A stretch of DNA of 64,000 nt from Escherichia phage fEgEco12: the sequence record PP777464.1. One strand, 5' to 3'. The translations under genes were made by a program, and so were the position numbers. Numbering within the stretch: the stretch's first letter is position 1; every line of letters starts with the position of its first letter. This document shows, one piece after another, positions 19,665 to 38,736 of this stretch. The notes under the pieces were generated by a model. The model saw nothing but the letters and a program-made list of their open reading frames with translations, made no database searches and was not told the origin of the DNA.

Positions 19665-20789
19665 TTAATTATCTAAGCCACCAATTACACTGAACTGTGT
19701 GGTAACGTCTGAACTATTATCTATGTAAGTTCTTCTACCAACATAATATAGTTGTCCTTTTGCTTGAATAAAAGTTACGGTCCCTGTATTGAATGTTATA
19801 ATATCATTGTATGTAATGTCAGGTGGTAGTGCTGCTGATAACGCAGTAACTTTACTTAATGCAGCACTAGTACTACCATTTATACCAGCAGCAATACTAC
19901 CAGTACCATAGAACTTATTATCTTTACCAATGAATACGTTGGCTGATGCTTGTGTAGCTGATGTTATTGCCTTACCAATTTGGAATGCGGTTCCTATGGT
20001 GTATGGTGTGCTCCTGGCTGCGTCTATGCTTTGTGTATATCCATCCCCTAGCTGACCATTAACTTTGTCACCACATGAGTATAGAGTACCATTGAGGCTG
20101 TATATGATCCCACGGTTAGAGAAGCTAACAGCTTCTGCATTAGTCCATACTGGTGCGGTGTATGAGTTTACACGACTAGCGGTAGTTCCTAGACCTAGTA
20201 TACCATATGTGTTATCACCACATCCAAACCATTGTCCAGAACTGTTTTGATAGAACACTGAACGTTCTGTTGATTCCATGCGTACAGCATCCACAGCACC
20301 ACTTTTAACGAACGAAGTTGATGAGGATGTAGTACCAGTACCCAATGCACCATAAGTGTTTGTACCAATCGCATAGATTGATCCTAGTGGTGTCATAACA
20401 CGTATGCAGTTATATCCCAATTGAACTTTACATTCAAATAGGTTGTCCCATATTTCAGGAACAGCAGAAAATAAATTTGTAATTTCGAACCATGATGTTG
20501 TCGAATCAGTTAATCCAATACTGCTTTTGTTTCCTAAAATGAAAACAGTTTTGTCCTTCTTAATTATCCATGATGATAGGAAACCTATCTCACAGCTATG
20601 AACATTTGATTCTATTTGGGTAATATAATACTTAACTGTGTTATCACCCATGAATGCCGCAGCACCGGATGCAAAAAGGTTTCCAGTTTGTTTATTTAAA
20701 ATGTAGTTATTGTTTCCATATACACTAACATCATAAGAACTTTCTTGTTTTTCGTTCCCATAATCAAATAACAATACGAAAGGTAACAT
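19665..20789 (-). CDS. RCC1-like repeat protein, array member 1 (leader MLPFVLLFDYGN)
   Basis: repeated G.N..GQLGDG-type motifs; shared N-terminal leader. Confidence 0.75.
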   Translation of the reverse strand: MLPFVLLFDYGNEKQESSYDVSVYGNNNYILNKQTGNLFASGAAAFMGDNTVKYYITQIESNVHSCEIGFLSSWIIKKDKTVFILGNKSSIGLTDSTTSWFEITNLFSAVPEIWDNLFECKVQLGYNCIRVMTPLGSIYAIGTNTYGALGTGTTSSSTSFVKSGAVDAVRMESTERSVFYQNSSGQWFGCGDNTYGILGLGTTASRVNSYTAPVWTNAEAVSFSNRGIIYSLNGTLYSCGDKVNGQLGDGYTQSIDAARSTPYTIGTAFQIGKAITSATQASANVFIGKDNKFYGTGSIAAGINGSTSAALSKVTALSAALPPDITYNDIITFNTGTVTFIQAKGQLYYVGRRTYIDNSSDVTTQFSVIGGLDN

Positions 20790-20866
20790 GATAAAATCTC
20801 CTTGTGTTATACTTTATTTAATCATTTTATAATGTACAATTTTACAGCGATTTAATTGAGGTACTC
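20790..20866. promoter_or_regulatory. divergent promoter region (array member 1 and + gene 20867)
   Basis: AT-rich; TATAAT-like boxes on both strands. Confidence 0.4.
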
Positions 20867-21517
20867 ATGAATAAAAGAAGTAAGTTCTATCAAGAATATT
20901 TCACTAAACAGAAACGATTCACAAAAAAATACTTTACATCATCCCACCGACCAGTTGCAAGTTACAAACGTCCTAATACTAACTATCTTACTGGTGGCAA
21001 GTTTAGTGCAAAGTTCGAATTACTTATGCGTGAAAAGAATATCAAGATGCATTACGCAGAGACGAGAAAAAACTCATCAATTATTTGTTCTGATTTTCTT
21101 GAGTACGGTTGTTTAACTTATAAATTCAACGATGTATATTTGTATATTGATGTTGATTGTAACAGTACTCGTATGTTTGAGATTTCAATTCACCCAAATC
21201 ACAACCGTTATATAAACATTAACTTGGTTGATAAAGTACTGATTGGTATATCTAGTACTGATGGTGGTGGATTTGAATTTATTGCTTCAAAATATGATGA
21301 GGACTTTGTACTGTTCCCAGTACTTGATGATGTGAAAGATATTCTCAATTCATTAAAAGGAAGTCAATACAAATTATCTGAAGAACAGCTATTTCAGTAC
21401 TCACTTATTCATGATGATATCGAGATATACTTAGAGTGTGCGAGAATATTGGAGTATCTTTATAATGAACTAACAACAACTGGTAAAGTGACAGCATTCA
21501 CATTATATAATATGTAA
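20867..21517 (+). CDS. hypothetical protein (216 aa) embedded in the array on the opposite strand
   Basis: ATG with GAGG RBS. Confidence 0.55.
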   Translation: MNKRSKFYQEYFTKQKRFTKKYFTSSHRPVASYKRPNTNYLTGGKFSAKFELLMREKNIKMHYAETRKNSSIICSDFLEYGCLTYKFNDVYLYIDVDCNSTRMFEISIHPNHNRYININLVDKVLIGISSTDGGGFEFIASKYDEDFVLFPVLDDVKDILNSLKGSQYKLSEEQLFQYSLIHDDIEIYLECARILEYLYNELTTTGKVTAFTLYNM

Positions 21518-21549
21518 AAGAAAAGCCAGTACATAGTACTGGCATTATA
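21518..21549. terminator. bidirectional terminator hairpin GCCAGTACATAGTACTGGC
   Basis: inverted repeat between convergent genes. Confidence 0.6.
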
Positions 21550-22686
21550 TTAAACTGGTGGAGAATTATATGGCTCAAATTTATAAGTTGTCGTAGCAGT
21601 ACCAGCAATGGCGTTGTTAGCTAGTATGTACATAGTCCTGTAGTCGATTACCACTACAGTAATACTACCACCAAAAGCATAGTCTGTTATGTTATTAGTG
21701 TTGAATGGTAAATTAGATGAACTGGTCCATGTATTAGCTGTTGTGCTATTTGTACCATTGGAATAACCTACACTAGATGCACCAGTTGTCCATAAGTTTC
21801 CATCATTGAACAAGGAGACATGGTTAGTTGTATATGATTTATTAGGTATAGAACTATCAATTGGTGTATTCCAAACTTTAGTAACCCATGTTGTAACTGC
21901 TGTATTATTAGTAACGCCATTACCTAATGAACCATTTATTGGTATACCTCTTATATAAGAAGTGTTAGTACTAGGGTCAACATATCCAAATGTATATGTA
22001 TCAAATGCAAATTGAAAACAATCAGAACTCGGTAATGTGTACAGTAATGTATATGAAGACGTGTTTATTGATGAATTTGTACCGTTCACGCCTTGGTATA
22101 AAATACCACTAGCCAATATTTGATTATTATTTTTTGTTATAGTGTTCATTGATGGATATGTTTTCACATCACGCACATCATTAGTCACATATGTTTGTGT
22201 TGATAATGCAACGTTACTACCATTACCTATAACCCCTGTATTTGCACCACTCCCATAAAGTGAACCATCATTCAAAAGAACCATTGTAACATTACCATTT
22301 CCCGTAATTGTTTTAATATTACTAACATCCACCGCAGCAAATACAGTTGATGTTAAATCAGTGAAACGTGTATAATGTGATGTTGTGCCATTGATTGGTG
22401 TCGCAAAACCAGAATACAAAATTCTATTTTCTTTGGTAATAAGGAATGTGCCAGTAACACCATTTGAATGGATATCAACAATATTATCGCCCATTAATAC
22501 CCAATCACTTACGAATGTTGTTGTACCAGTACCCAACCCATATGTCGTATTGTATCCACGTCCATACACTCTACCATCACTGAGTAATGTTACCACACAT
22601 TGACCACCACCACCAAGGATAACTTTTTGGATAGTACTCTTTACTTTTATATTCCCGTACTTAACCATTCTTGCAAAAGGTAACAT
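21550..22686 (-). CDS. RCC1-like repeat protein, array member 2 (leader MLPFARMVKYGN)
   Basis: GYNTTYGLGTGTTT-type motifs; only RBS upstream, co-transcribed with member 3. Confidence 0.75.
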   Translation of the reverse strand: MLPFARMVKYGNIKVKSTIQKVILGGGGQCVVTLLSDGRVYGRGYNTTYGLGTGTTTFVSDWVLMGDNIVDIHSNGVTGTFLITKENRILYSGFATPINGTTSHYTRFTDLTSTVFAAVDVSNIKTITGNGNVTMVLLNDGSLYGSGANTGVIGNGSNVALSTQTYVTNDVRDVKTYPSMNTITKNNNQILASGILYQGVNGTNSSINTSSYTLLYTLPSSDCFQFAFDTYTFGYVDPSTNTSYIRGIPINGSLGNGVTNNTAVTTWVTKVWNTPIDSSIPNKSYTTNHVSLFNDGNLWTTGASSVGYSNGTNSTTANTWTSSSNLPFNTNNITDYAFGGSITVVVIDYRTMYILANNAIAGTATTTYKFEPYNSPPV

Positions 22687-22700
22687 TCTTTTTCTCCTTG

Positions 22701-23849
22701 TTATATTGATGGCATATCCAACACATATGAGTTGCTAGTGATTGATGAATATGTAGAATTTAAACCTGTACTATAAACATAATCACCTGCCCATAAGAAT
22801 GTTCTATCCAATGTTGTATGTATTTCAATATCATCATATGATGATAATGATATTTGTGCCAGTGTATATGTAGTAGCATCAATGTTTGAACCAATACCCA
22901 AAGTACCATTGTATTGTGATTGGGAGTTTTGACCAGTTGCATATATACCAGATTTGGTTATTAAATGCTGATTGTACATTGACGTACCTTTAAACAATTT
23001 AATTAAATTAGAGTTGGGTGTTGTTATTTGTGCAGGAGCAAGTATTGTTGTTGTAGTGCCACCATCACCCAATTGACCATATCGTTGGTAACCACCAGCG
23101 TATACCTGTTTAACTCCAGCAGTAGTTTCTATAATAAAGAATGAACCATAGCCAGTAGTATTAAAGTCTATTATTTTATTTGTACTCAAACCAACATTAT
23201 ATCTAGTAAATGTTGTTGCATTTGCTGAACCACCAGCATTCCCACCGACCATTTGACCACTATAATAAAATGCACCAGTACTGTCAGTATAAGCCATACA
23301 GTTTTCACTACCATATATTTTCACTGGTGTACTGGGGAAACTAGAGGTTATATTCACACATGTATTATATTTTGCAGTAGTTCCAGTAATTTCACCATTG
23401 TTGTTTTGACCAATGACCCAAACTGTGTCATCTGAACGTATAGCCATTGAGCTATAAAACGAGGATACAAATTGTTTAATAAAGGAACCAGGGAGAGAAG
23501 TAAGCATACTATTGATTTGTGCACTCACATTGGTCCATGTATTCACAACTGAATTGACACCTGCTGCTGCACCGGAACCAGAACTCCACCATGATTCATC
23601 ATTCTTTTTAATCAATGTACCGTTAGCAGAGCAATAAACATCAGCAACTGAACTATTAACTAATATCCATTCCCTCGCTGCTGTTGTATTACCAGTACCT
23701 AGCTGTCCTGCTGCATTACTACCCTTAGCATATAAATCGCCATTCTGCGTTAAAAGCATAGTATGTTGGTATCCAGTTGACAATTTCTTTATTTTTGGTA
23801 ATGCTGGTGCTTCATTTCCATAATCAAACATTCTAACAAAAGGTAACAT
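22701..23849 (-). CDS. RCC1-like repeat protein, array member 3 (leader MLPFVRMFDYGN)
   Basis: GSNAAGQLGTGNTT, YQRYGQLGDGGTTT motifs. Confidence 0.75.
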   Translation of the reverse strand: MLPFVRMFDYGNEAPALPKIKKLSTGYQHTMLLTQNGDLYAKGSNAAGQLGTGNTTAAREWILVNSSVADVYCSANGTLIKKNDESWWSSGSGAAAGVNSVVNTWTNVSAQINSMLTSLPGSFIKQFVSSFYSSMAIRSDDTVWVIGQNNNGEITGTTAKYNTCVNITSSFPSTPVKIYGSENCMAYTDSTGAFYYSGQMVGGNAGGSANATTFTRYNVGLSTNKIIDFNTTGYGSFFIIETTAGVKQVYAGGYQRYGQLGDGGTTTTILAPAQITTPNSNLIKLFKGTSMYNQHLITKSGIYATGQNSQSQYNGTLGIGSNIDATTYTLAQISLSSYDDIEIHTTLDRTFLWAGDYVYSTGLNSTYSSITSNSYVLDMPSI

Positions 23850-23926
23850 AATTCCCTCCTTTATTCATTATACTATATTTAATCAAAAAGAAAAGCCAGC
23901 ACTCTGTACTGGCATAGTATTAAGGT
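23850..23926 (-). promoter_or_regulatory. array cassette: terminator hairpin + TATAAT + AAGGAGG RBS
   Basis: conserved about 75-bp cassette. Confidence 0.6.
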
Positions 23927-25057
23927 TTAAATATTTTTATAATTAATTTCTACATAGTTACGTTGTGTTCCAGTATATCCTGGAACATTACCTATATTTC
24001 CATTACCTGCACCAAACAGACGTTCTCCGACTGCAAAATATGTCCCATAGAAACAACCATCAAACACAGGAACATCATTATAATTTGATATGTAATTATC
24101 CATAGAATCCATTCTAGTGTATACTGTCAGAGCTACATTCGTACCCATACCATATGCACCATACGGGTTAGTACCAGCAACATAATACCCAGTGGGTGTA
24201 CATATTACTGGTGAATTTGCCCCTGATCTCGTGTGGATAAATCTAAATGTACCTTCAGGTACTGGTGCTTCTTTACTGAATAATGTTGTAGCTACTACTG
24301 GGTAATCAATACCATAACTATTACCACTCAACCACGTTTTACCATCACTATCTTTGAATAATGAACAGGATTGTGTGCATCCGAACAGATTCAAATTGGT
24401 TACATTTGGAAATTTACTAATTTGTGTATATACCAGAACTGTGGTTGCGGCAGCACTACCAAGTTGTCCACGACCATTATCACCCGCACTGTACATGTAC
24501 CCATCGGTCTTTAATATTATACTAGCGTTTCCTAAAATATCAAAATCAACAACATCCGTTTGTGTTAATGTAGCTATAGGATAACGAAAATTCACTGCCT
24601 CACCAGTACCAAATTGACAATTGGTGTTTGCCCCACATCCATATAAGTTGCCGTTTTGCATTAATATAAACAAACCTGTTGTCATTTTAATTTTCTTAAT
24701 ATTAAGAATATCTATATCTTGGAATATGTGTGTTACATTTACAAATGTGGTTGAGTTAACAGCACTTGAACCATAATAAGAACCGTTCCCGCTGCCAAAG
24801 AATTCATCGCCTTTTCTGTACATTGCACATAGACTACCACCCCATACATCATCAACCCCAGTGTCAATTTGAATAACAGAAGTAACACTAGTTGTTGTAC
24901 CAGTGCCAAGTTCACCACCTGAATTGTATCCAAAACCATACAAATCCCCACTTTCTGTTAGCACCAAAACACTGTTATTGGTTGTGCATGAAATCTTTTT
25001 GATATTATTAGATGGTCTTTTATTTCCGTACTTAACCATTCTTGCAAAAGGTAACAT
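23927..25057 (-). CDS. RCC1-like repeat protein, array member 4 (MLPFARMVKYGN)
   Basis: GYNSGGELGTGTTT, GDNGRGQLG motifs. Confidence 0.75.
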   Translation of the reverse strand: MLPFARMVKYGNKRPSNNIKKISCTTNNSVLVLTESGDLYGFGYNSGGELGTGTTTSVTSVIQIDTGVDDVWGGSLCAMYRKGDEFFGSGNGSYYGSSAVNSTTFVNVTHIFQDIDILNIKKIKMTTGLFILMQNGNLYGCGANTNCQFGTGEAVNFRYPIATLTQTDVVDFDILGNASIILKTDGYMYSAGDNGRGQLGSAAATTVLVYTQISKFPNVTNLNLFGCTQSCSLFKDSDGKTWLSGNSYGIDYPVVATTLFSKEAPVPEGTFRFIHTRSGANSPVICTPTGYYVAGTNPYGAYGMGTNVALTVYTRMDSMDNYISNYNDVPVFDGCFYGTYFAVGERLFGAGNGNIGNVPGYTGTQRNYVEINYKNI

Positions 25058-25136
25058 ATTTCCCTCCTTTATTCATTATACTATATTTAATACAAAAAGA
25101 AATGCCAGTATCAAGTACTGGCATAGTTTTATAGTA
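25058..25136 (-). promoter_or_regulatory. array cassette: terminator hairpin GCCAGTA(CTTGA)TACTGGC + promoter + RBS
   Basis: conserved cassette. Confidence 0.6.
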
Positions 25137-26246
25137 TCATTTCGGCATTGTAATTGCAGACCATGAGTTCGTGGTAATAGGACCTGGCACATACAAAAAA
25201 GAACCACAAGCATAAATTTGATTATTACCATCAAATACTATACTAAAATGTGCACATGTGTATAATGCTGATTTTTCTGGGTTGTAATTATCTAAAGTTA
25301 GTGTATTGGTGAATCTACTCAAACCACCACCAGAACCATTTCTACCAAATTCACCAGTACTATATATCTTTCCTTCGGTTGTTGCGTACATATTAACATA
25401 TGAAGTTGCACTTGATTTTGATATTTTATGTATCTTACTATCAATAGTAGTGGAGTTAAATGCAAATGGATATACTTGTGTGTTCGTTGTAATACCGTTA
25501 CCAAGTTGACCAACATACTGCCAACCTGCGTTGTATATATTGCTGGCTGAATAAGCAAGAGTACCAGTACTGTTACCACCAAACAGTTTAACACTGGTTA
25601 ACCTGCTTACTAGTGTAGTATACTGTCCTGGACTTACGCCAAGTGAACCATACCCACTACTCCCACAACCGAGAAGTTCACCATTTGATGTTAATATTAA
25701 TGTGTTATTCTGTGTACCCAATATATCAAGGACTGTATTAGCTCCGGTATTAATAACTGAAACAAAAGTACTCTGAGCCGTGGAATACCCAGCACCGAGT
25801 GAATAGTTACCATTCATGCCTCTACCATAAACAATCGAACCACTAGCATCAACGTAGTGCATTGTATCTACACCAATTGATATCATTTTAATATTAGATA
25901 TATGTGGAAATGAAGAAGTAACATTCAAACCACCCAACTGAATCGTAGTATTTCCTGTGCCTAATTGTGTGGTAACTCCATGCATTATGAATTCTTCACC
26001 CTTGAGATAAAGAATATTGTACGCCCCAGCCCATGCATCAGTAACACCTTCTGAAATTAATATCCAAGTATTTCTTGTTGCTGTATTTTCAACGTTTAAC
26101 TGAAAATAAGTATTAACCCCACAACCATAAAGTGAGCCATCGCCATAGAGGACGTACAAATTATCAAGACCGCACAGTACTTTCTTTATCTTTGGATCTT
26201 CAGGTGCAATATTCCCGTAATCAAACATTCTAACAAAAGGTAACAT
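25137..26246 (-). CDS. RCC1-like repeat protein, array member 5 (MLPFVRMFDYGN)
   Basis: start set at the MLPF Met; track ORF extends through the cassette. Confidence 0.75.
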   Translation of the reverse strand: MLPFVRMFDYGNIAPEDPKIKKVLCGLDNLYVLYGDGSLYGCGVNTYFQLNVENTATRNTWILISEGVTDAWAGAYNILYLKGEEFIMHGVTTQLGTGNTTIQLGGLNVTSSFPHISNIKMISIGVDTMHYVDASGSIVYGRGMNGNYSLGAGYSTAQSTFVSVINTGANTVLDILGTQNNTLILTSNGELLGCGSSGYGSLGVSPGQYTTLVSRLTSVKLFGGNSTGTLAYSASNIYNAGWQYVGQLGNGITTNTQVYPFAFNSTTIDSKIHKISKSSATSYVNMYATTEGKIYSTGEFGRNGSGGGLSRFTNTLTLDNYNPEKSALYTCAHFSIVFDGNNQIYACGSFLYVPGPITTNSWSAITMPK

Positions 26247-26318
26247 ATTTCCTCCTTTATTCATTATACTATATTTAATACAAAAAGAAAAGCCAGTACT
26301 CAAGTACTGGCCTATATT
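26247..26318 (-). promoter_or_regulatory. array cassette (terminator hairpin + promoter + RBS)
   Basis: conserved cassette. Confidence 0.6.
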
Positions 26319-27056
26319 TTAGACTGAATTGTTAGGATAATATCTCCCACGTCCCCATATTATTCGCACAGCACCACCACCAGCAGCAGTATAAGAAGAA
26401 TTATCCCATATACTACCACCACCACCATACCTCTTACCAGCACCACCACTACCAGCACCACCATTATATGAACCACCGTAGCTACCACCAATACCATTAG
26501 CACCTTGAACAATGATACCAGTACCACCACCCGTACCAATGAACGAGGTACTATAGAATGTACCACCCCCACCGCCGCCGCCAGCACCATTTTCACCAGT
26601 GATTGCATCTCCGTTACCACCTTTACCAGTGTAGCCACCAGCACCACCACCAATGACTGCACCACCACTTACACCAGTGTTGCCACCATTACCACCACCA
26701 TCATTAATAGCGTTAGCAGCTTTTCCACCTAGTCCACCAACCGTATATGCACCAGTGAAGCTAACACATAGTTTTTCAGTTCCACGGTATAAACCGTTTT
26801 CAACTGCTGTAGTAGTGTTGGAATGTGTAAGAGAAACACTTAAGTACTCACCACCAGAAACTGGAATATTATTACGCCACGATAAGCCGCCACCAGCACC
26901 ACGTTGACCACCCGGTGAAATAACACATACTGATATTTCGGTAACGCCAGCAGGAACTGTAAATTGTGTTGTTCCTATTGCCGTGATTAATTGTTCACCA
27001 TGTGGCTTATATTCAATTTTATTCCCGTACTTAACCATTCTTGCAAAAGGTAACAT
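26319..27056 (-). CDS. glycine-rich protein carrying the array leader (MLPFARMVKYGN)
   Basis: same leader and cassette, body replaced by poly-Gly low-complexity sequence. Confidence 0.7.
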   Translation of the reverse strand: MLPFARMVKYGNKIEYKPHGEQLITAIGTTQFTVPAGVTEISVCVISPGGQRGAGGGLSWRNNIPVSGGEYLSVSLTHSNTTTAVENGLYRGTEKLCVSFTGAYTVGGLGGKAANAINDGGGNGGNTGVSGGAVIGGGAGGYTGKGGNGDAITGENGAGGGGGGGTFYSTSFIGTGGGTGIIVQGANGIGGSYGGSYNGGAGSGGAGKRYGGGGSIWDNSSYTAAGGGAVRIIWGRGRYYPNNSV

Positions 27057-27128
27057 AATTCCCTCCTTTATTCATTATACTATATTTAATACAAATAATA
27101 ATGCCAGTATCAAGTACTGGCATTATTA
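27057..27128 (-). promoter_or_regulatory. array cassette
   Basis: conserved cassette. Confidence 0.6.
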
Positions 27129-28319
27129 TTACAATTGTCTAGGTGTATCCAGAACATATCTATTTGTTTTAGGACCACCATCATCATAAGTTCCGGTTGA
27201 ATATATATTTTTCATATCAGCAGTCAGGAAAGTACGCAACGAACCGCGATATATTTTTATTTTATCATACATAGAATATGTTATTTCTGACGGCAATGGA
27301 CATGCAGTAAATTTACCAATGGTAGCATCATAACCAACACCCAATGTGCCAGCATAACTACTCGCATTTAAACCAGTTGCATATACACCTGTACTCGTAA
27401 CTAGTATACTAGATTGTGCTGGGTATCCAGTATGGATTGAATAATAAGTACCGGGTGGTAATGTAGCACTATTATTTCCTAAAACTCCATTAACAGTGCT
27501 AGATGTAGTTTTATTTCCCCATGCTCCATTATTAGCTAATCCACCAACTAGAAACTGACGTGCTCCTGTATTTGGATTCTCCACTAAAGCACTGACAGCA
27601 CCAAATGAACAAACAGTATATTGTAATGTTTTTGTATATGTGGTACTTGGCTTATACAAAGTATATTCATTAAATGGTGTCCATGTGGTACTAGTACTTA
27701 TGCCAGATGTACTACCACCAATATATAAATTATTTTGTGTATCATAAAACATTACACAGCTATTTGTTGACTGTATTCGTGCAATATCAACATTAGGCGT
27801 GACAGCTTTTACAAATGAACCATCTGATATTTGATAAGTAGTTCCTGTACCATCTGCGAATTGTCTAGCACTATTCCACCCTGTACTCCATATTGTATTA
27901 TTATCCATTAAGAAAGTAAACCACGTAGTACCTGCATACATCTGTTTAATTGAAGTACTTGAACTTTGTGTGTACAAATTTTCAATATATTGGTTATAAC
28001 TTAAAAATGATGTAGTACTAGTTTCTAAACCAATATGACTACCATATCCACAATAAAAATAATTTAAGTCCTTATCTTGAACTAACAAAGTTCCTTGTGT
28101 CATCCAGCAATCTTTGACATTTTCTCTAATTAATGTCCACGACCTTACTGCATTATTATTTCCTCTACCAAACTTCCCATAACTATTACTACCTCGTGCG
28201 TATAGTTGACCGTCGGTATAAAGTACAACAACCTCAGTATCAGTTGGTATTATTTTCTTAATTTGAAGAGGTTCAGGTGTGATATTCCCATAATCAAACA
28301 TTCTAACAAAAGGTAACAT
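27129..28319 (-). CDS. RCC1-like repeat protein, array member 7
   Basis: GSNSYGKFGRGNNNAVRSW motif; leader. Confidence 0.75.
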   Translation of the reverse strand: MLPFVRMFDYGNITPEPLQIKKIIPTDTEVVVLYTDGQLYARGSNSYGKFGRGNNNAVRSWTLIRENVKDCWMTQGTLLVQDKDLNYFYCGYGSHIGLETSTTSFLSYNQYIENLYTQSSSTSIKQMYAGTTWFTFLMDNNTIWSTGWNSARQFADGTGTTYQISDGSFVKAVTPNVDIARIQSTNSCVMFYDTQNNLYIGGSTSGISTSTTWTPFNEYTLYKPSTTYTKTLQYTVCSFGAVSALVENPNTGARQFLVGGLANNGAWGNKTTSSTVNGVLGNNSATLPPGTYYSIHTGYPAQSSILVTSTGVYATGLNASSYAGTLGVGYDATIGKFTACPLPSEITYSMYDKIKIYRGSLRTFLTADMKNIYSTGTYDDGGPKTNRYVLDTPRQL

Positions 28320-28390
28320 AATTCCCTCCTTTATTCATTATACTATATTTAATCAAAAAAGAAAAGCCAGTATCAAGTACTGGCGTAATG
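28320..28390 (-). promoter_or_regulatory. array cassette
   Basis: conserved cassette. Confidence 0.6.
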
Positions 28391-29533
28391 TCAATAAGTA
28401 TCCCAAGGTAATGGTGTCTTCCTAAATCCATACCTGGTTGTGCTCGCACCATCACCAGCAATGTATCTACCTATACCACATTGGTATAACTCTGTACTAC
28501 TACATATAGCACCACCAATAGTACCACTACTCCACTGAATTATATTAGAATATGTTATTGGTAAATCACTACATTTAGTATATATTCCAACAGTAGCACC
28601 ACCACTAATACCACCAAACATACTTCGGTTAGCACCAGTGTAATATATACCATCTGGACTCATAAATGCAGAGGTGTAAGTTGTACTGCAATCCACTGGA
28701 CTTCTTATTGTATTAAGATCGCCTGGGTATGTCCTGACACCAAAGGTGTATACATTACCATCAGTTGTAATACCATTACCTAACTGCCCACTGTTTTGTC
28801 CACCACATGTAAGCAACAATGCAGAACCAGAAACAATTGCAGTAGCATTATACGAAGTACCCATTGCAATAGAAGCACCAGACAATAGTTTTGGAGTAAC
28901 AATAGCTGTTGTATTACCCTGGCCTAATTCACCATTGATATTTCGTCCCCATGCGTATATAGAAGTCGTGTCCAATCGACATAGTACTGAACCATAACTA
29001 AACGTATATCGCATGTCAATTACCGCATTAGGCAAATTAACCTTAGTTGCAACACTAATAACACCACCAGTAACACCACTGTTTGCGTTCATGTTACGAC
29101 CATATGCATATAAAGAACCATCTGAAGTTTTAATATGCATCATACCATCTGTACAATATAATGCATCTATACTCTCCACCGCAACCGGACCCATACTGGT
29201 AGTTATATCGGTCCACCCAAGAGAGGTAGTACTAGAAATTAAGTTATTTCCGGCGTATAGTATTCTATTATTATTAGTAACTACAACTGTATATCTGGTA
29301 GTAACACCAATTAATCGAACATCAGTATATATCTTAGACCACGCACCTAATGAATTGGTGTTTGCATCCAAAAAGCCCAACTGCCCATCTGTATTGTATC
29401 CAATACCCCATACATCACCTGCACTGTCCAATAACACTTCATGTGAAAATCCAATCTTAAAATCTTTTATTGTAGGAACTACCGGAACTGGTGCAATATT
29501 CCCGTACTTAACCATTCTAGCAAAAGGTAACAT
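28391..29533 (-). CDS. RCC1-like repeat protein, array member 8
   Basis: GYNTDGQLG, GQNSGQLGNG, GRNINGELGQG motifs. Confidence 0.75.
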   Translation of the reverse strand: MLPFARMVKYGNIAPVPVVPTIKDFKIGFSHEVLLDSAGDVWGIGYNTDGQLGFLDANTNSLGAWSKIYTDVRLIGVTTRYTVVVTNNNRILYAGNNLISSTTSLGWTDITTSMGPVAVESIDALYCTDGMMHIKTSDGSLYAYGRNMNANSGVTGGVISVATKVNLPNAVIDMRYTFSYGSVLCRLDTTSIYAWGRNINGELGQGNTTAIVTPKLLSGASIAMGTSYNATAIVSGSALLLTCGGQNSGQLGNGITTDGNVYTFGVRTYPGDLNTIRSPVDCSTTYTSAFMSPDGIYYTGANRSMFGGISGGATVGIYTKCSDLPITYSNIIQWSSGTIGGAICSSTELYQCGIGRYIAGDGASTTRYGFRKTPLPWDTY

Positions 29534-29607
29534 AATTCCCTCCTTTATTCATTATACTATATTTAATACAAATAAGAATGCCAGTACTCTGTACTGGCAT
29601 TTTAATT
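29534..29607 (-). promoter_or_regulatory. array cassette
   Basis: conserved cassette. Confidence 0.6.
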
Positions 29608-30762
29608 TTAACTCGGTGTAACTATTTTTTTAAATAATCCTGTATTTCCGGCATTTTCTTCTTCATACGGAATTGTACCCATACCAGCAGTTCTACTACC
29701 ATTCCCTGAACCATATAATTCACCGTTTTTTAACATGAATGTTATCATATAACCATGTGTCATTTTATCATATGGAACTGGTTCAGTTATATTAGTACAT
29801 GCACGCCATGTTTTAATAACATTAGAGTTCGTTATTCCATCTCCAGAAGCGTTTCCACGCCCAGCGAAATACCATATACCACCTGCTCTAACGTGTGCTT
29901 CATAATTAGAACCACCTATGTAATCAATCGCAGTACTAGGAATACTAGAAGCTGGTATCTTTGTGATTGTTCTAAGACTGTTAATAGTGCCATCAGTGCC
30001 ATCACCCAACTGTCCATCTATTTGTGAACCGAATACATATAGCCCATCACTCTTTAATACGTAATTAGCACTATATGCATTTTCTGAATTTATCTGTAAT
30101 ACTCCAGTAGTAACAGTAGTCAATGTGGTAGTTGTACTAGTCGTACCAGTCGAACCAATACTAGATTTATTCCCACTGTACTTTAATGTCCCATCATTGT
30201 ATAATACAAATGAAGCATTATTCGCGGTTACACCAATATCTTTAACATCAACTTCAGGTGTCAATGTCAGTACTGATACTCTTTGTCCAACAGCCCCAGT
30301 AAAAACTTCACCGTTGTTATTGTCACCCATCTTATATAATTTATTATCTATTGTTAATAATAATGTAACGCCGTTTCCTATAACTATTTTACTATATGTG
30401 TCATTCACATTATTAAAAATACCAAGTATTTCTGTCCATACACGATAAGTAGTATTAACACCACGATAGATTTGAGTACCAGTACTCCACCATGTGCCAT
30501 CATTTTTACGTACTAATATTCCTTGTGTATCACCAGTAGTCCAAAATTCCTTTACATCAGTTAAACATAAAACCCACTCTTCAACTATAGTAGGAGAACT
30601 ACTACCAGTACCTAATTGATAGTAAAAATTATGCCCTCTGCCATATAATCTTCCGTCTTCTAATAAAATAAACACATTATTCTGTAAAACTTTTACCATC
30701 TTTATACCAACTGGCACAGGTGCTTCATTCCCATAATCAAACATTCTAACAAAAGGTAACAT
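29608..30762 (-). CDS. RCC1-like repeat protein, array member 9
   Basis: GHNFYYQLGTG, GSQIDGQLGDG motifs. Confidence 0.75.
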   Translation of the reverse strand: MLPFVRMFDYGNEAPVPVGIKMVKVLQNNVFILLEDGRLYGRGHNFYYQLGTGSSSPTIVEEWVLCLTDVKEFWTTGDTQGILVRKNDGTWWSTGTQIYRGVNTTYRVWTEILGIFNNVNDTYSKIVIGNGVTLLLTIDNKLYKMGDNNNGEVFTGAVGQRVSVLTLTPEVDVKDIGVTANNASFVLYNDGTLKYSGNKSSIGSTGTTSTTTTLTTVTTGVLQINSENAYSANYVLKSDGLYVFGSQIDGQLGDGTDGTINSLRTITKIPASSIPSTAIDYIGGSNYEAHVRAGGIWYFAGRGNASGDGITNSNVIKTWRACTNITEPVPYDKMTHGYMITFMLKNGELYGSGNGSRTAGMGTIPYEEENAGNTGLFKKIVTPS

Positions 30763-30832
30763 ATTTCCCTCCTTTATTCATTATACTATATTTAATCAAA
30801 AAGAATGCCAGTACTTGAGTACTGGCATTATG
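30763..30832 (-). promoter_or_regulatory. array cassette
   Basis: conserved cassette. Confidence 0.6.
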
Positions 30833-31942
30833 TTATTTTGGTAAATCAATTTTAGCAAAGACTGCAACATCTGCACTTGCACCTGGAATGGCGTAATACG
30901 ATCCAGTACTATATACATTCCCGTCTTTGGTTAATAATGATGTTAATCCGTCACTAAAAGCAACATCACTAATCTCACTAACTTCTACAGGTAATTGTAA
31001 ATTAGCAGCACTATAGATAGCACCCGTTTGAGAATTGTTTAATCCCAAACCACGGTTTCCCCCAATACCTTTCTGATATGCACTAGTTAATATAATTTGC
31101 GTAGCCGTGCTTGTTGCCTCTGAATTTGTCATAAACAAAGGTGAATTATTAGGTAAAGTACTTACAGGAACTGCTTTGAATGTAGTTGAATCTGAACTAA
31201 GAAAGTTTGGAGTTGTACCACATGTGAAATATGATGTACCATTATAGTAATTGAGTGTATGTCCACCAATAGCTGCATCTATTACACCAGAACTACGCAG
31301 TCCCCAAATGTTAACTTGTGTTCTGTTCCCTGTGCCATGTAATCCACGGTCATTCCACCCTGAACTATATAACTTATTATCTATGCTAATATACATACTA
31401 TCATTAGGAGTAGACATAACTTTACGCACATTAGAAGCACATAGTGTTAATGTATATATTGATGAAGAACCAATCCCCAATACACCACGGTATCCATTAG
31501 CCCCAGCACCATAGAGTACTGAACTTGAACTGAGTACAAATATTACACCACCATTGCATACAATATTAGCAATTTGATTCACAGGAATTGTATTTGTAAA
31601 CCACTCCGTTCTATCAACTAATGTAGTACTGTAAGAAGTTGTTGTTGATGATGTGAACCAATATGTTTCACCTGATGTCCATATCGTATTGTCATTTTTA
31701 ATAATAACAAGTGTTCGTCCTCCAGTGAAAAAATTAGAAACATCTGCACTTACTAATGTCCAAGAAGATACCGTGTTTTTATTACCATTTCCAGATTCAC
31801 CACCTTGATTTCTGCCTATGTAATATAATTCATGTGAATCAGTCAATACGAATTGACCTTGTGTAGAAGCACCAACTTTTATTATATTTTTAGGACCAGG
31901 TGTAATATTCCCATAATCAAATAGTCTTACAAAAGGTAACAT
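30833..31942 (-). CDS. RCC1-like repeat protein, array member 10
   Basis: start at MLPF Met; 8-nt gap with GGAGGAAT RBS, co-transcribed with member 11. Confidence 0.75.
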   Translation of the reverse strand: MLPFVRLFDYGNITPGPKNIIKVGASTQGQFVLTDSHELYYIGRNQGGESGNGNKNTVSSWTLVSADVSNFFTGGRTLVIIKNDNTIWTSGETYWFTSSTTTSYSTTLVDRTEWFTNTIPVNQIANIVCNGGVIFVLSSSSVLYGAGANGYRGVLGIGSSSIYTLTLCASNVRKVMSTPNDSMYISIDNKLYSSGWNDRGLHGTGNRTQVNIWGLRSSGVIDAAIGGHTLNYYNGTSYFTCGTTPNFLSSDSTTFKAVPVSTLPNNSPLFMTNSEATSTATQIILTSAYQKGIGGNRGLGLNNSQTGAIYSAANLQLPVEVSEISDVAFSDGLTSLLTKDGNVYSTGSYYAIPGASADVAVFAKIDLPK

Positions 31943-31950
31943 AATTCCTC

Positions 31951-33144
31951 CTATTGTTGCCATAACTGCGTTGGCATTAATGTTAATGTTTTAATTAAGT
32001 AAGTACCATCCGGTAATTTACTACCTGAACCGTTAAAGCCCCCACATGCATATAATTTATAATCTTTAGTTATAATTATTGTTCTGGACCAGTCTTTGGA
32101 TGCCATAAGAACATTGTCATATCCACCCTGTATCGCACTTAAAGAAAACGCCCCCCACGAAGTAATTATTGTTGTATTTCCCGTCCCTTCTTGACCATAT
32201 GTATTGATGCCTGCACTCCTGACATATGATGGGTATTGAGCCATAGGTGCACCAATTGTTGAGTTACCCATATTACTAGGACACAGGAAACCATCACTAA
32301 TATTCACTATAACCTGTGAATTCTGAACTGTAGTTAATTGGTTTGTAGTTGAAGTAGTACCATTCCCAGCTTGTCCAGAATTGTTTCTACCACTCCAGTA
32401 CACCCTACCGGCAGTAAACCACCAGGTAACATCATAAGTAGTACTTATATAATCGACGTTGGTTCGTATTAATTTATTAGTAAAAACGTATGAGCTAGTC
32501 CCACCACCACTTTCACCAAAGTTATCCTTACCACAAAACCATGCTTCTTTATTTGTTTTGAGATAGTGCGTACCCTGTAATGAACACGCCAATTGAGAAA
32601 CTTCACCCATACCAGTAACAACTGTTAGTACTGGAATGGGATTTTGGTTACCTGTTCCACATTCGGCATTTGCATTTTTACCACAAACAACGACTCTTCC
32701 ATCGTGTAGTAATATTCTAGTACTTTCACCTATATGTACACTCTTGATTAAATTAGCGTGTATATTTATTTTGTTAAATGCGGCAGTAACATCAGTCCAT
32801 GTTCTAAAATAACCATTAACTGGAGTTGCATCTCCATAATCGGGGAATGCTACTGTATTCCCTGTGAAATATATTCTATTATCCAAGTCAATCATCAATG
32901 ATCCATGAACGCCTAACCAAAAGGCTGCACAGTGCGTTGCCAGTACTGTAAAAGTTGAAACTGCCGATTGATTCCCTAGACCTAATTGGCTCAAGTTATT
33001 ACCACCATAACCGTATAGTGTATTCGTGGGCTTATGTAGATACATAGCATTAGTATAATGTTGCTGTAAAACATCAGTGAACTCAACTGGTTCAGGAATA
33101 GGCAGTTTATTCCCGTACTTAACCATTCTTGCAAAAGGTAACAT
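31951..33144 (-). CDS. RCC1-like repeat protein, array member 11
   Basis: GGNNLSQLGLG, GRNNSGQAGNG motifs; start at MLPF Met (alternative 33159). Confidence 0.7.
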   Translation of the reverse strand: MLPFARMVKYGNKLPIPEPVEFTDVLQQHYTNAMYLHKPTNTLYGYGGNNLSQLGLGNQSAVSTFTVLATHCAAFWLGVHGSLMIDLDNRIYFTGNTVAFPDYGDATPVNGYFRTWTDVTAAFNKINIHANLIKSVHIGESTRILLHDGRVVVCGKNANAECGTGNQNPIPVLTVVTGMGEVSQLACSLQGTHYLKTNKEAWFCGKDNFGESGGGTSSYVFTNKLIRTNVDYISTTYDVTWWFTAGRVYWSGRNNSGQAGNGTTSTTNQLTTVQNSQVIVNISDGFLCPSNMGNSTIGAPMAQYPSYVRSAGINTYGQEGTGNTTIITSWGAFSLSAIQGGYDNVLMASKDWSRTIIITKDYKLYACGGFNGSGSKLPDGTYLIKTLTLMPTQLWQQ

Positions 33145-33159
33145 AACTAAAATCTCCAT

Positions 33160-33219
33160 ATAATAATTATAATGTATTTACAAAAAAATACCAGTACGTA
33201 TTTCAGTACTGGTATAATG
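33160..33219 (-). promoter_or_regulatory. variant array cassette (hairpin ACCAGTAC..GTACTGGT, TATAAT, GGAG)
   Basis: diverged cassette. Confidence 0.5.
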
Positions 33220-34401
33220 TTATGGTAAAATAATAGCTTGTAACGAACTCATACCCAATGTTGGAACACTCGCCTGTGGTGCTGGTGCATTCACTTTTGG
33301 TGATGAAACCGCATATGTCATTCCTGAACCCAAATCTGGATCAAAAACTACAGCACAATAATTCCCACTATATATAAGTCCATTCTTGTATCCTTGTGCA
33401 CTTTGAATGCATTTCGTGAACGTCCCAATATCTGTAGTGGCATTTATTAAGTTCCTCCCACGATAACCGCAGGTGTATATGAAATTATCATCGCCTATGT
33501 ACATACTAGAATCCCCAGCAGAACTACATAGATACGACATATAAGCACGCATGTTTTTAGGAGCAACTGACAATGTACCAGCATAGAATTTATTATTCGA
33601 ACCCGAAATATCACCATCACCCAAAGCACCAAAACTCCCCCAACCAGTACCATAATATCTCTTATCACTCAAGAATATAATACAGTTGTTATTACACATC
33701 TTGACTTGATATATCAATGAAGGATCAACCCCAGGGAATGATTCAGTGTATGTTAGAACAGCCAGATCAGTACTAGCATTACATTGATGATATGTATTAG
33801 TACCAGAGGACAATATTGTACCATCAACTAATAGAATCCTCGAAGTGCCAGTACCAGCAGTACAAGCAACTGCACTTCCTGCACTTCCGGTGTATATTTG
33901 TCTGAAAGTAAAGAAACCAACAGTCTTACTCCCTTGTCCACTCCAACCAGTATTATCAACACCACACGCCCATACTGAACCATCTTCCATGATCATCATT
34001 ACACCATAACGTTCTATTGAAATATAAACAATCTTTTTAGTATCAACTGCACTAAATCTAGAAGTTATATCCGTCCAAACCTTTACACTTACCGCCGTCG
34101 CACTGGAAGTAGGATCTTCACCTGCTATCATTATCCTACCATTGTTAGTCAGATACATTGTCTGACTATAACCAGTACTACAAAACTTAACACTATCAGT
34201 CTCTGGAACTTTTAACCACTCGTTGTAACGTGTTACGTTAGTGTTATTACCTAACTGATAATAGTTATTCATCCCAGATACATATAACACACCATCCTTT
34301 ATTAAACTATAAGTCGCACTATAGTCACTACAGGTATAACGTGTACCCACAGGTGGCTCAACGACGTTCCCATAATCAAACATTCTAACAAAAGGTAACA
34401 T
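33220..34401 (-). CDS. RCC1-like repeat protein, array member 12
   Basis: GMNNYYQLGNNTN motif; leader. Confidence 0.75.
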   Translation of the reverse strand: MLPFVRMFDYGNVVEPPVGTRYTCSDYSATYSLIKDGVLYVSGMNNYYQLGNNTNVTRYNEWLKVPETDSVKFCSTGYSQTMYLTNNGRIMIAGEDPTSSATAVSVKVWTDITSRFSAVDTKKIVYISIERYGVMMIMEDGSVWACGVDNTGWSGQGSKTVGFFTFRQIYTGSAGSAVACTAGTGTSRILLVDGTILSSGTNTYHQCNASTDLAVLTYTESFPGVDPSLIYQVKMCNNNCIIFLSDKRYYGTGWGSFGALGDGDISGSNNKFYAGTLSVAPKNMRAYMSYLCSSAGDSSMYIGDDNFIYTCGYRGRNLINATTDIGTFTKCIQSAQGYKNGLIYSGNYCAVVFDPDLGSGMTYAVSSPKVNAPAPQASVPTLGMSSLQAIILP

Positions 34402-34474
34402 AATAAAATCTCCGTAATTAAATTATATAGTATTTACAAAAAATACCAGTACATATTTCAGTACTGACCTATTA
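34402..34474 (-). promoter_or_regulatory. variant array cassette
   Basis: hairpin + TATAAT + GGAG. Confidence 0.5.
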
Positions 34475-35596
34475 TTAAAAGGGCAACGGTAACTCAGTAA
34501 AAGTACTTACGTCCGGTAAACCATACATTGAATTAGCATCACCACAGTAATACCACTTCGTAGAATCATGTACCACCGATAAACGCTGTGCACATAACAC
34601 TTCCTGTATGTCATTAAACACCATCGGGACTAACTCATATGTATCCGCAAATGAAGATACACCACCACTCGCATGAAAAGTATTCGTCCCAGCATAAAAT
34701 AACTGATTAGTGTTCTTACCCACAGCAAATGTCATCAATATCCCATCATTCTCCCATAAAGAAGAAAACTTATCAACACTACCAGAAAGCTCTGTGTAAG
34801 TACTCGTAATGGCACTCGCAGCCGCCGCATTACCCATCTGTTTATTCAAGTTCTGTCCAGCAATAAAATATCTCGTTCGTGCACTAGAATCAGTATATAA
34901 TAACCCAGTGTTCGTAGTCATCATACCAATGTCCTTAATCGTCATACCAGTCTGTGAATAACTTAGATACGAAGTTAAATTAACATTATTACCCAACGAA
35001 CCGTTATCACTCATGCCACAACGATGTAATATACCACTTGTATCAACGTAGATTGTACTAACTAAACTCGTATACAACTCTTGTACATTATTCGCAATAA
35101 ACACAGCAGTCGCCTTATTACTAACCCCACCAAATGATAGGTTATTATCAAATCCCTTAGCGTATAATTGATTATTAGTAGTCAATAATCCAATCGTGAA
35201 ATAAGACATTTTCATATCCCTTACTGTACTCAAATCTACTGCCCCAAATTGGTGCGTAACATCTGTCCATGTGAAAATCTGTGCACTACCAACACCACCC
35301 GTTTCAAACCATTTGTCACCACAGTACAATATGCGATTACCCTTAGTAAAGATAACTGTTACCAATCCACTACCACACGCAAACTTTACATCACTTCTAA
35401 CCTTCGTCCAATCAAGTACATAGGTAGTGGTGTTATTACCTATACCTAACTTGCCATAACGGTTATAACCACGCACCCACAAATCACCACTCTTAGTAAT
35501 TAATAGTAATGCGTCTCCTGTACTTATTATTCGAAATCCCGAACTAGGATCAGGTACTTCATTTCCATAATCAAACATTCTAACAAAAGGTAACAT
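34475..35596 (-). CDS. RCC1-like repeat protein, array member 13
   Basis: GYNRYGKLGIGNNTT motif. Confidence 0.75.
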   Translation of the reverse strand: MLPFVRMFDYGNEVPDPSSGFRIISTGDALLLITKSGDLWVRGYNRYGKLGIGNNTTTYVLDWTKVRSDVKFACGSGLVTVIFTKGNRILYCGDKWFETGGVGSAQIFTWTDVTHQFGAVDLSTVRDMKMSYFTIGLLTTNNQLYAKGFDNNLSFGGVSNKATAVFIANNVQELYTSLVSTIYVDTSGILHRCGMSDNGSLGNNVNLTSYLSYSQTGMTIKDIGMMTTNTGLLYTDSSARTRYFIAGQNLNKQMGNAAAASAITSTYTELSGSVDKFSSLWENDGILMTFAVGKNTNQLFYAGTNTFHASGGVSSFADTYELVPMVFNDIQEVLCAQRLSVVHDSTKWYYCGDANSMYGLPDVSTFTELPLPF

Positions 35597-35668
35597 ATTT
35601 CCCTCCTTTATTCATTATAATATATTTAATACAAAAAAGAAAAGCCAGTACAGAGTACTGGCATAGTA
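35597..35668 (-). promoter_or_regulatory. array cassette
   Basis: conserved cassette. Confidence 0.6.
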
Positions 35669-36778
35669 TTACTTGGGTAATGGAATTGTAGTCCATCTAT
35701 TAGCGGCAACGCCCCCTGGTACATATGTAGGACTACCACTTACAGCAATAGTTTCATTACCATCATACACAACACTGAAGTTTGTGCACGTATACAACGA
35801 GGCGGTATCTGGATTGTAATTTATAAGTGTTAATGTATTGGTGAACAAATTCAATGCAGTAGTTGACCCGTTTTTACCAAACGAACCTGTCGTATATATC
35901 TTTCCTTCTGTTGTTGAGTACATGTTAACATATGACCCAGATGATGATTTGGCAATTTTATCTATCTTGCTATCTATCGTTTTAGAGTTAAATTGAAATG
36001 GATATACCTGTACGTTAGTATCTAAACCATTTCCTAGTTCCCCATTTAACTGCCACCCTGAGTGGTACATTCCCGAATTTGTATATGCAAGCGTACTATA
36101 CCCATTACCACCCATTATTTTAGTGCCAGATAATTTTAAACCAAACGATGTCCACTTACCAGTTTCATTTCCTATAGAACCATAAGCACTTGTCCCACAT
36201 GCTCGAAGCTCACCATTCGATGTTAGAAGCACTGTATTATTAACGTTACCAAATATATCAATAACCTGATTAGTTCCATTATTCAGTACTGAAGTGAAAG
36301 TACTCTGTGAGTAAGTACTACCTGAACCAACAGAACCATTTGTGTTCATACCTCTTCCATATACAGTTGTACCATCAGCACTAACATAGTGCATTGAATC
36401 AAAACCAATGGATATCATTTTAATATTAGAGATATCTGGGAATGAAGAAGTTACATCTACTCCACCTAATGGAATTGTAGTATTTCCTAAACCTAATGAG
36501 ACATTAGTTCCGTGCATTATAAATTTATCTTCTTTCAAATATAAAATATTGTATCCACCAGCCCATGCATTACTAACACCATTGGTAATTAGTACCCAAT
36601 TATTTTGTGTAGCAGTTCCATCAATATTTAACTGTTGATAGTTATTGATTCCACAACCATATAGCGAACCATCACCATATAGTACATATAAATTATCATA
36701 TCCTGCTATAACTTTCTTTATTTTTTTCGGTACTGGTGCAATATTCCCGTACTTAACCATTCTTACAAAAGGTAACAT
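35669..36778 (-). CDS. RCC1-like repeat protein, array member 14 (close paralog of member 5)
   Basis: start at MLPF Met. Confidence 0.75.
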   Translation of the reverse strand: MLPFVRMVKYGNIAPVPKKIKKVIAGYDNLYVLYGDGSLYGCGINNYQQLNIDGTATQNNWVLITNGVSNAWAGGYNILYLKEDKFIMHGTNVSLGLGNTTIPLGGVDVTSSFPDISNIKMISIGFDSMHYVSADGTTVYGRGMNTNGSVGSGSTYSQSTFTSVLNNGTNQVIDIFGNVNNTVLLTSNGELRACGTSAYGSIGNETGKWTSFGLKLSGTKIMGGNGYSTLAYTNSGMYHSGWQLNGELGNGLDTNVQVYPFQFNSKTIDSKIDKIAKSSSGSYVNMYSTTEGKIYTTGSFGKNGSTTALNLFTNTLTLINYNPDTASLYTCTNFSVVYDGNETIAVSGSPTYVPGGVAANRWTTIPLPK

Positions 36779-36850
36779 ATTTCCTCCTTTATTCATTATA
36801 CTATATTTAATACAAAAAGAAAAGCCAGTATCAAGTACTGGCATATTAAA
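36779..36850 (-). promoter_or_regulatory. array cassette
   Basis: conserved cassette. Confidence 0.6.
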
Positions 36851-38101: not shown

Positions 38102-38329
38102 ATGACAACTACACTTAAGTACTACATTAATACTCTAACTGAACTAGAGTACGCGAAGTTTCTCGCGGATAGTTCGTGGCTAATTGAGCTAAAAACACAT
38201 AACAGTACTGGATGTAACCTTATGCTGAACAATGCACTTGATACCCTTGTAGTGAGTATTTTACACAGCAACATCTGCGGGAATAGCAATAAACAATTAT
38301 CAAAAATCTTAGTACTGGTAGCTCTATGA
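38102..38329 (+). CDS. tiny-protein family member (75 aa)
   Basis: first gene after promoter. Confidence 0.5.
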   Translation: MTTTLKYYINTLTELEYAKFLADSSWLIELKTHNSTGCNLMLNNALDTLVVSILHSNICGNSNKQLSKILVLVAL

Positions 38330-38538: not shown

Positions 38539-38539
38539 T

Positions 38540-38725: not shown

Positions 38726-38736
38726 AAGAGTACTAT

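Follow-up and report, generated by a model that had tools for sequence, protein, structure and literature searches.

Why does a glycine-rich gene stand in an array of RCC1-like genes, and why does it begin as they do? The question was raised by the gene at positions 26319 to 27056 of a 64,000-nucleotide (nt) stretch of DNA from Escherichia phage fEgEco12 (PP777464.1), the whole of which is called the window here. Relatives of the source phage are the Asteriusvirus members, i.e., 121Q-, PBECO4- and phAPEC6-like jumbo coliphages of approximately 350 kb. The best overall explanation, which we consider reasonably probable, is that a short N-terminal leader loads the protein onto the virion and that its glycine-rich body would act as a surface adhesin. 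The features of the gene and its surroundings are listed below.

26319 to 27056, minus strand: complete gene of the leader and glycine-rich protein, 245 amino acids (aa), stop codon included, orthologue of 121Q gp243.
27021 to 27056, minus strand: leader, codons 1 to 12, MLPFARMVKYGN, the 'FARMVKYGN' variant, with DNA identical or near-identical to that of the array paralogues.
27000 to 27020, minus strand: linker, residues 13 to 19, KIEYKPH, where homology to the neighbouring genes stops.
26322 to 26999, minus strand: body, residues 20 to 245, predicted TNF-like beta-sandwich with an inserted glycine-rich lattice.
27062 to 27068, minus strand: Shine-Dalgarno sequence AAGGAGG, 5 nt before the ATG, common to most array members.
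27074 to 27092, minus strand: AT-rich box GTATTAAATATAGTATAAT, containing TATAAT, a putative promoter.
27100 to 27124, minus strand: hairpin AATGCCAGTACTTGATACTGGCATT with a T-rich tail, first element of the upstream cassette and putative terminator of the upstream RCC1-like gene.
26290 to 26313, minus strand: terminator-like hairpin AGGCCAGTACTTGAGTACTGGCTT followed by TTCTTTTT, directly 3' of the glycine-rich gene.
19665 to 37999, minus strand: array of 15 leader-bearing genes, i.e., 14 RCC1-like genes and the glycine-rich gene, found by scanning the window for open reading frames (ORFs) with the leader.

Homology to the wider glycine-rich family starts at G20, directly behind the linker. 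Because the terminator-like hairpin lies directly downstream, the glycine-rich gene forms its own promoter-to-terminator unit. The hairpin family of the upstream element scored terminator-like at other array positions too.

The initial annotation had named two results that would overturn it, i.e., that the ORF is a degraded pseudogene, or that the glycine-rich region has no structural or homology support. Neither was obtained. The gene is intact in 121Q (gp243), BF17 and phAPEC6, and of the four genomes compared, three have an ORF of 245 aa, whereas a one-glycine deletion shortens it to 244 aa in phAPEC6. By tblastn with the glycine-rich protein, 17 Escherichia-phage records were hit. Positions 25000 to 29000 of the window matched Escherichia phages BF17 and CMSTMSU at approximately 95% across the full length, and 121Q at 92% in the shared parts. 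The CMSTMSU copy is fragmented; this record is flagged UNVERIFIED and the neighbouring genes are split as well, with split genes occurring throughout.

The window protein had no Pfam match (E <= 1) and no meaningful PDB sequence match, either as a single sequence or as a profile. In a search of 5.8 billion proteins with a cut-off of E <= 1e-3, 175 homologues were found, mostly of 240-280 aa, many of them annotated as PF21722 (Gly_rich_2). One protein with this annotation (P0035) was matched at E 1.1e-15. An alignment of 91 of the 175 homologues contained 7 invariant and 36 nearly invariant columns, which are chiefly the glycines of the GGGNGG, GGAGGY and GGG motifs and the closing VRIIWG strand. 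PF21722 was matched by 26 of these 91 homologues (best 3.5e-11), and the leader-bearing homologue Munch_544 clears the Pfam gathering score (25.6 vs 24.3). The window protein belongs, as a divergent member, to a known domain family. It shares with PF21722 proteins homology over approximately 90% of its length, the 240-280 aa size class and the GGG/GNGG/GGAGGY/VRIIWG scaffold, whereas it stays below the threshold of the Pfam hidden Markov model and carries a leader of Rak2-like phages in place of the MLELL-type N-terminus. Annotations of the 'PE-PGRS' or M. tuberculosis type on some homologues were treated as compositional mis-annotation.

In structure prediction with AlphaFold2 (AF2), the protein without alignment gave an unusable model with a predicted local distance difference test score (pLDDT) of 32.8. 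With the 91-sequence alignment, pLDDT was 93.5 and the predicted template modelling score (pTM) was 0.90. The model is a beta-sandwich with strands within residues 20-100 and a closing strand at 229-234. The glycine-rich insert occupies approximately residues 105-228, and the sole helix has 4 residues (111-114). A TNF-like beta-sandwich with an inserted, ordered glycine-rich lattice is thereby predicted, as in PF21722. The closest solved relatives by fold were tail-fibre and tail-tip 'brush' domains, of which the Pam3 tail fibre was the best. In Foldseek searching against PDB, the top two matches were unchanged but weak (E 2.7e-3, TM 0.28), and among the predicted viral structures of BFVD, the top matches were 'glycine-rich domain-containing proteins' (E 2e-13).

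From the confidently predicted fold and the fold matches, it follows that the glycine-rich part is an ordered TNF-like/polyglycine domain and not disordered low complexity. The body was initially described as poly-glycine low complexity; its richness in glycine stood, and the low-complexity part did not, as the structure prediction that had been proposed returned a folded domain. It is very probably a brush domain of PF21722 type.

The same evidence bears on the idea that the ORF is a degraded or spurious low-complexity frame. Although the protein is 29% glycine with no direct Pfam or PDB sequence match, and although a fragmented copy (CMSTMSU) and a truncated, leaderless variant (P0002, below) exist, the ORF is intact in the four genomes compared and in 17 phage records, its homologues share conserved columns, its own fold is predicted with confidence, the CBB homologue was detected as a protein, and the fragmented copy comes from the unverified record with split neighbours. 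The pseudogene or junk reading was rejected on these grounds and is almost certainly wrong.

The identity of the body leads to its possible role. The cyanophage Pam3 tail fibre gp24 (PDB 7YPX) carries distal TNF-like and glycine-rich receptor-recognition domains, and the window protein is predicted to have this feature. Pam3 gp24 also has its own long N-terminal alpha-helical bundle for trimerisation and baseplate docking, and gp25 serves as its dedicated chaperone. In the window protein, a 12-residue leader and a 7-residue linker stand in the place of the shaft, and identity between the two is 15-17%. Other close systems are the 'tail wing brush' gp33 and the tail spike gp29 (PDB 9D93) of mycobacteriophage Bxb1 and the polyglycine brush domains of siphophage hubs, which differ in phage type, host envelope and attachment mode and share no leader. 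The siphophage-hub brush domains are regarded as antireceptors (PMC13243795). The extracellular glycine-rich domain of ALK/LTK (PDB 7LIR, 7LRZ) is related by fold only; it belongs to a eukaryotic receptor kinase and binds a cytokine. The tip adhesin gp38 of T4/S16, a polyglycine-II sandwich and the family that the initial annotation alluded to, is likewise a glycine-rich receptor-binding module at a fibre tip. No specific similarity to its polyglycine sandwich was found, and the gene does not lie beside a long-tail-fibre gene. The suggestion that a host-recognition role is conceivable is supported by the predicted fold, since the closest solved relatives are tail-fibre and tail-tip brush domains.

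Is the protein then a conventional receptor-binding tail fibre, i.e., a baseplate fibre like Pam3 gp24 or a tip adhesin like gp38, with the array position and the leader incidental? The Pam3 fibre is the best structural match, and the CBB homologue is a virion protein encoded outside any array. However, only 19 residues precede the domain and there is no N-terminal helical shaft. No Tfa-like chaperone gene or long-tail-fibre gene adjoins the gene, as the genes on either side (25137-26246 and 27129-28319) are RCC1-like paralogues. Because the leader is kept on the CBB and Munch homologues as well, it is not incidental. An ordinary tail fibre is therefore an improbable explanation.

The leader itself was examined in the array. 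The initial annotation had described an array member with the neighbours' leader and cassette and a different body, and this was borne out. The ORF starts with the same 12 residues and is 29% glycine, vs 10-13% in the 14 other leader-bearing ORFs. All 14 neighbours fall in one propeller BLAST cluster, and the three that were tested all matched Pfam WD40_RLD/RCC1_2 (RCC1 scores 1e-8 to 1e-23), with phrog_4219 in one. The glycine-rich ORF had no RCC1 or WD40_RLD match in Pfam and was assigned to PHROG 4474, not 4219. The shared upstream cassette consists, in order, of the hairpin GCCAGTACTTGATACTGGC with a T-rich tail, the AT-rich box, and AAAGGAGG at 5 nt before the ATG. It is repeated nearly base for base before 10 other array genes, with a diverged copy before an eleventh (36851-37999). 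The genes ending at 22686 and 33144 have exactly the 36 leader nt of the glycine-rich gene, and the gene ending at 25057 differs from it at one synonymous site. Past codon 12-13, similarity drops abruptly.

Such a pattern could arise if the peptide had no function and the promoter, ribosome-binding site (RBS) and start region evolved in concert by gene conversion or selection on initiation, with the glycine-rich gene as a passenger. In the window, cassette and leader are near-identical even at synonymous sites and end abruptly, as this would predict; this indicates recent duplication or gene conversion in addition to selection on the peptide. In CBB, XbC2 and Munch, however, the synonymous sites of the leader differ (CCA/CCT/CCG, TTT/TTC, TAT/TAC, GGA/GGG/GGT) and the upstream sequences also differ, while the residues M, P, F, Y, G and N are retained. 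Selection therefore acts on the leader peptide. The stand-alone gene CBB_144 also retains the leader outside any array. A functionless leader is accordingly very improbable.

The leader follows the pattern M-[LI]-P-F-x2-[ILM]-x2-Y-[GA]-N over 12 residues, and the window protein fits this class, with the pattern directly behind a Shine-Dalgarno sequence in a genome of approximately 350 kb. By tblastn with an RCC1-like neighbour, jumbo phages of Erwinia, Serratia, Yersinia, Xanthomonas, Cronobacter, Klebsiella and Salmonella were hit, with alignments starting from residue 1. The leader was found in five other jumbo-phage lineages, i.e., CBB, GAP32, Serratia BF, XbC2 and Munch. In GAP32, it heads GAP32_001 (RCC1) and GAP32_002 (210 aa); in Serratia BF, gp371 and gp374-376 (RCC1) and gp372; in Xanthomonas XbC2, 581 (RCC1), 582 (LamG) and 583-585; and in Salmonella Munch, 535-550 (RCC1), 540, and 544 (267 aa, 31% glycine). 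In Pectobacterium CBB, it heads gp425, 427 and 429 (Kelch), gp428 and 431 (Laminin_G_3), gp426, 430, 442 and 443, and the glycine-rich homologue CBB_144, which starts MLPFSPLIVYGNK and lies between nrdD and nrdG. Four Pfam classes, i.e., RCC1, Kelch, Laminin_G_3 (ConA-like) and Gly_rich_2, and several unclassified bodies thus stand behind the leader, and 68 leader proteins formed 10 BLAST clusters. The initial proposal of a fixed leader with an interchangeable body was supported by this range.

A degenerate DNA pattern of the leader was matched against 2.9 million contigs of IMG/VR, where a real gene start was defined by a Shine-Dalgarno sequence and an ORF of at least 168 aa. Real leader gene starts occurred only on contigs of 348-378 kb; elsewhere the hits were short or internal chance matches. 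The consensus of 85 distinct leader proteins was M-[LI]-P-F-x-[R/I/Q]-[MIL]-x-x-Y-G-N, in many cases with a proline-rich stretch behind it; some of the proteins had been gathered by the pattern itself, which in part builds in the conservation at the patterned positions. In uncultivated relatives, the leader proteins on IMG/VR jumbo contigs (355-371 kb) also included some of 667-676 aa, roughly double the usual size, and others of 168-169 aa. These are further body types or double modules.

Do leader proteins reach the virion? In phAPEC6 virions, mass spectrometry (MS) found the RCC1-like proteins gp003, 005, 006, 007, 009 and 010 (PMC7247149), and all six carry the leader (MLPF start). CBB_144 was found in CBB virions by MS, where 5 unique peptides gave a coverage of 34% (PMC5259590). 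The CBB terminal cluster has nine leader genes, seven of them annotated as structural from the same MS data, and the leader heads five of the six CBB structural proteins without a GAP32 counterpart (144, 536, 537, 551 and 552). The CBB authors argued that CBB-specific structural genes should encode its tail 'whiskers' (PMC5259590). GAP32_001 was also detected by MS. Many leader proteins, including the CBB homologue, are associated with the virion, and the window protein is probably a virion component. The initial view of the leader as the functional handle gains indirect support from the peptide kept across genera and from the MS-verified leader proteins of phAPEC6, CBB and GAP32. That it is a loading handle is somewhat favoured.

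The main rival to surface display, an internal location, has to be weighed at this point. According to fusion work by Mullaney and Black, a short N-terminal peptide shared by the T4 proteins IPI-III reportedly behaves as a capsid-targeting sequence. If the leader were such a sequence, the bodies would lie inside the head, as inner-body components or as injected binders of host factors. Here too, one short N-terminal peptide is shared by otherwise unrelated virion proteins, and MS shows virion association, not location. The phAPEC6 head has an inner-body rod, for which RCC1-like proteins were named as candidates by the authors (PMC7247149). However, no conserved protease site (L/I-x-E or S/A/G-x-E) follows the leader: Glu occupies position 13 in only 10 of the 85 proteins, and no conserved acidic residue was found at positions 13-20. 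The body types are all typical outward-facing binders, every solved phage relative of the glycine-rich body lies at a tail-fibre or tail-tip extremity, and the five CBB leader proteins absent from GAP32 belong to the genes argued to be the source of the external whiskers. Capsid targeting as in T4 is unlikely. Somewhat less likely still is the particular case that the leader is a packaging-and-ejection signal, not a surface anchor, and that binders injected along with the DNA neutralise host factors. If this were true, the head would be loaded with a diversified set of RCC1/BLIP-II-like, Kelch, lectin and brush modules, and the array would be a cassette-swappable arsenal. Under this reading, as under one with external bodies, the leader would be a portable tag of 12 residues, enough by itself to bring foreign proteins into a jumbo-phage particle.

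The bodies behind the leader were also compared, with the first 18 residues removed. In this crude neighbour-joining (NJ) and BLAST analysis of compositionally biased glycine-rich sequences, the window body was closest to two leader-bearing metagenomic proteins (P0003 and P0004, 59-60% identity), followed by MLELL-type bodies (P0005-P0012, 50-52%, approximately 190-207 bits). Identity to the leader-bearing CBB_144 was 36% (112 bits), and Munch_544 was outside the 12 best matches. The best matches of CBB_144, Munch_544 and P0016 were all MLELL-type. Taken at face value, these sequence relationships would mean that the leader was joined to glycine-rich bodies several times. The PBECO4 genome is without the glycine-rich unit: there, a cassette and an RCC1-like gene come straight after the orthologue of the upstream gene. 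Among Escherichia-phage records, the RCC1 query hit 32 vs 17 for the glycine-rich protein. The glycine-rich unit is accessory within the genus. Because leader type is incongruent with body relatedness, PBECO4 is without the unit and a leaderless variant (P0002, below) exists, it is reasonable to consider that bodies were swapped behind the leader. Domain replacement, as initially suggested, was therefore supported, though not as a one-off local event.

The MLELL-type N-terminus, M-[LI]-E-[LM]-[LM], was found on at least 32 homologues outside Rak2-like phages (P0005-P0034 and others). Whether it is a swappable handle of its own was considered and dropped, as no evidence was obtained: in two large contigs, it is carried only by glycine-rich paralogues. 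On a 150-kb Plesiomonas-associated contig (L011, 9176-10744, plus strand), two MLELL-type genes lie in tandem just 5' of the terminase and portal genes, and one of the two had not been called as a gene. A leaderless variant was also seen on a 26.7-kb Logan contig (P0002), starting MNKGGN|KIEYKPHG. In it, the 36-nt leader is deleted exactly between the GGGAAT of the RBS region and the GGGAAT of codon 11-12, and 39 aa are deleted in the glycine lattice. Such a variant reflects a natural deletion or else an artefact of assembly.

The findings can be combined into a mechanism. The window protein would be a modular virion protein made of leader (1-12), linker (13-19) and brush body (20-245). The leader would be a fold-independent handle, which loads proteins into the virion by docking at a common site, and the likeliest dock would be the hair-like or fibrous capsid and tail decorations observed on phAPEC6 and CBB. 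Several kinds of binding module would thereby be on display together, and the glycine-rich body may be one of them, i.e., an adhesin that recognises a ligand of the cell envelope. The cassette and leader form a repeat of approximately 110 nt that flanks every body; recombination across it may allow whole bodies to be gained, lost or swapped, and we infer that this repeat is an obvious substrate for such exchange. For external display of the window protein, the odds are judged about even.

Several points weigh against this explanation. The pairwise ratio of nonsynonymous to synonymous substitution (dN/dS) between orthologues is 0.4-0.8 with few substitutions, which indicates modest constraint and is indecisive alone. 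The phAPEC6 leader proteins were detected with only 1-4 unique peptides (PMC7247149). For the RCC1-like proteins, the phAPEC6 authors suggested a role inside the particle, in the organisation of DNA (PMC7247149). In phAPEC6 (MK817115.1), the counterpart of the glycine-rich gene is at 7117-7869, minus strand, where the annotated 'gp004' is a 100-aa out-of-frame ORF within it; because of this wrong-frame annotation, the true protein was outside the MS database. A wrong-frame ORF of the same type is present in the window as well (26360-26668, minus strand). AF2 confidence is low for residues 1-19, with pLDDT 50-75 at the leader and approximately 50 for residues 1-10, so the model offers no structure-based clue to the leader. 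The absence of a helical shaft like that which docks Pam3 gp24 to the baseplate, and of an adjoining chaperone gene, counts here too, as does the crudeness of the NJ/BLAST incongruence test on glycine-rich sequences.

The array shows further features around the glycine-rich gene. Terminator-like hairpins numbered 25, vs 8.2 +/- 2.8 in shuffles, i.e., approximately three-fold. Two leader variants, FARMVKYGN (MLPFARMVKYGN) and FVRMFDYGN (MLPFVRMFDYGN), mostly alternate along the array, which suggests that genes were duplicated in pairs. A hybrid leader, FVRMVKYGN, heads the gene ending at 36778. The full cassette is not universal, as the genes at 21550-22686, 30833-31942, 19665-20789, 31951-33144 and 33220-34401 (minus strand) deviate. 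Two of these lie 8-14 nt behind the upstream neighbour with an RBS alone and have the appearance of operon pairs, and the other three have another AT-rich promoter-like box, TGTAAATAC...TATAAT. The differing boxes suggest more than one expression class. In the 121Q array (920-4813), short fragments are annotated, i.e., gp235 (74 aa), gp237 (42 aa) and gp240 (68 aa). The array thus persists even as single RCC1-like units decay.

On the opposite strand inside the array, a 216-aa gene (20867-21517, plus strand, phrog_34359) has bidirectional hairpins on either side. Past the other end of the array, a 219-aa gene lies at 40101-40760 (plus strand). The two were compared as possible paralogues, and no relation was detectable (E 0.63). 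Approximately 20 tightly packed ORFs of 59-78 aa at 38102-42705 (plus strand) run divergently from the array, cf. 121Q gp249-254, and could represent another paralogue array, one of tiny genes. The region 42700-44700 is gene-poor and contains a 32-nt tandem repeat at 43816-43922 (3.3 copies, 16-nt and 8-nt sub-periods, CTGGATGG), approximately 2 kb past the minimum of cumulative GC skew (approximately 42 kb) and just after a switch of coding strand. This region could be an origin or regulatory region. No tRNA genes and no Rfam matches were found in the window.

That a conserved N-terminal element can be combined with a C-terminal binding module open to exchange is already well known from phage fibres, spikes and T4 internal proteins. 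In the anchor domains of tailspikes and tail fibres, the conserved N-terminus sets the place in the virion and the C-terminal body is exchangeable. The leader resembles both these anchors and the T4 capsid-targeting sequence in this combination. It differs from the T4 sequence in having no conserved protease site behind it, and from the anchor domains in being far shorter, with at least four unrelated folds behind it in several genera. No description of the leader motif or the shared N-terminus was found in the searchable literature. Its brevity of 12 residues, its joining to at least four unrelated folds in six phage lineages, and the repeated expression cassette appear to be new.

If the leader is a handle, it would account for the arrays of 10-20 separately expressed 'RCC1-like' genes that are annotated as DNA-condensation proteins, and it would provide concrete candidates for the 'hairy' decorations of phAPEC6 and CBB. 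The 'DNA condensation protein' annotation and the unexplained hairs would thereby become testable questions. As a handle, the leader would also be a very short tag by which foreign proteins could be displayed on jumbo phages or packaged with them. For the phages themselves, recombination over the repeated terminator-promoter-RBS-leader cassette would be a simple route for the exchange of host-interaction modules.

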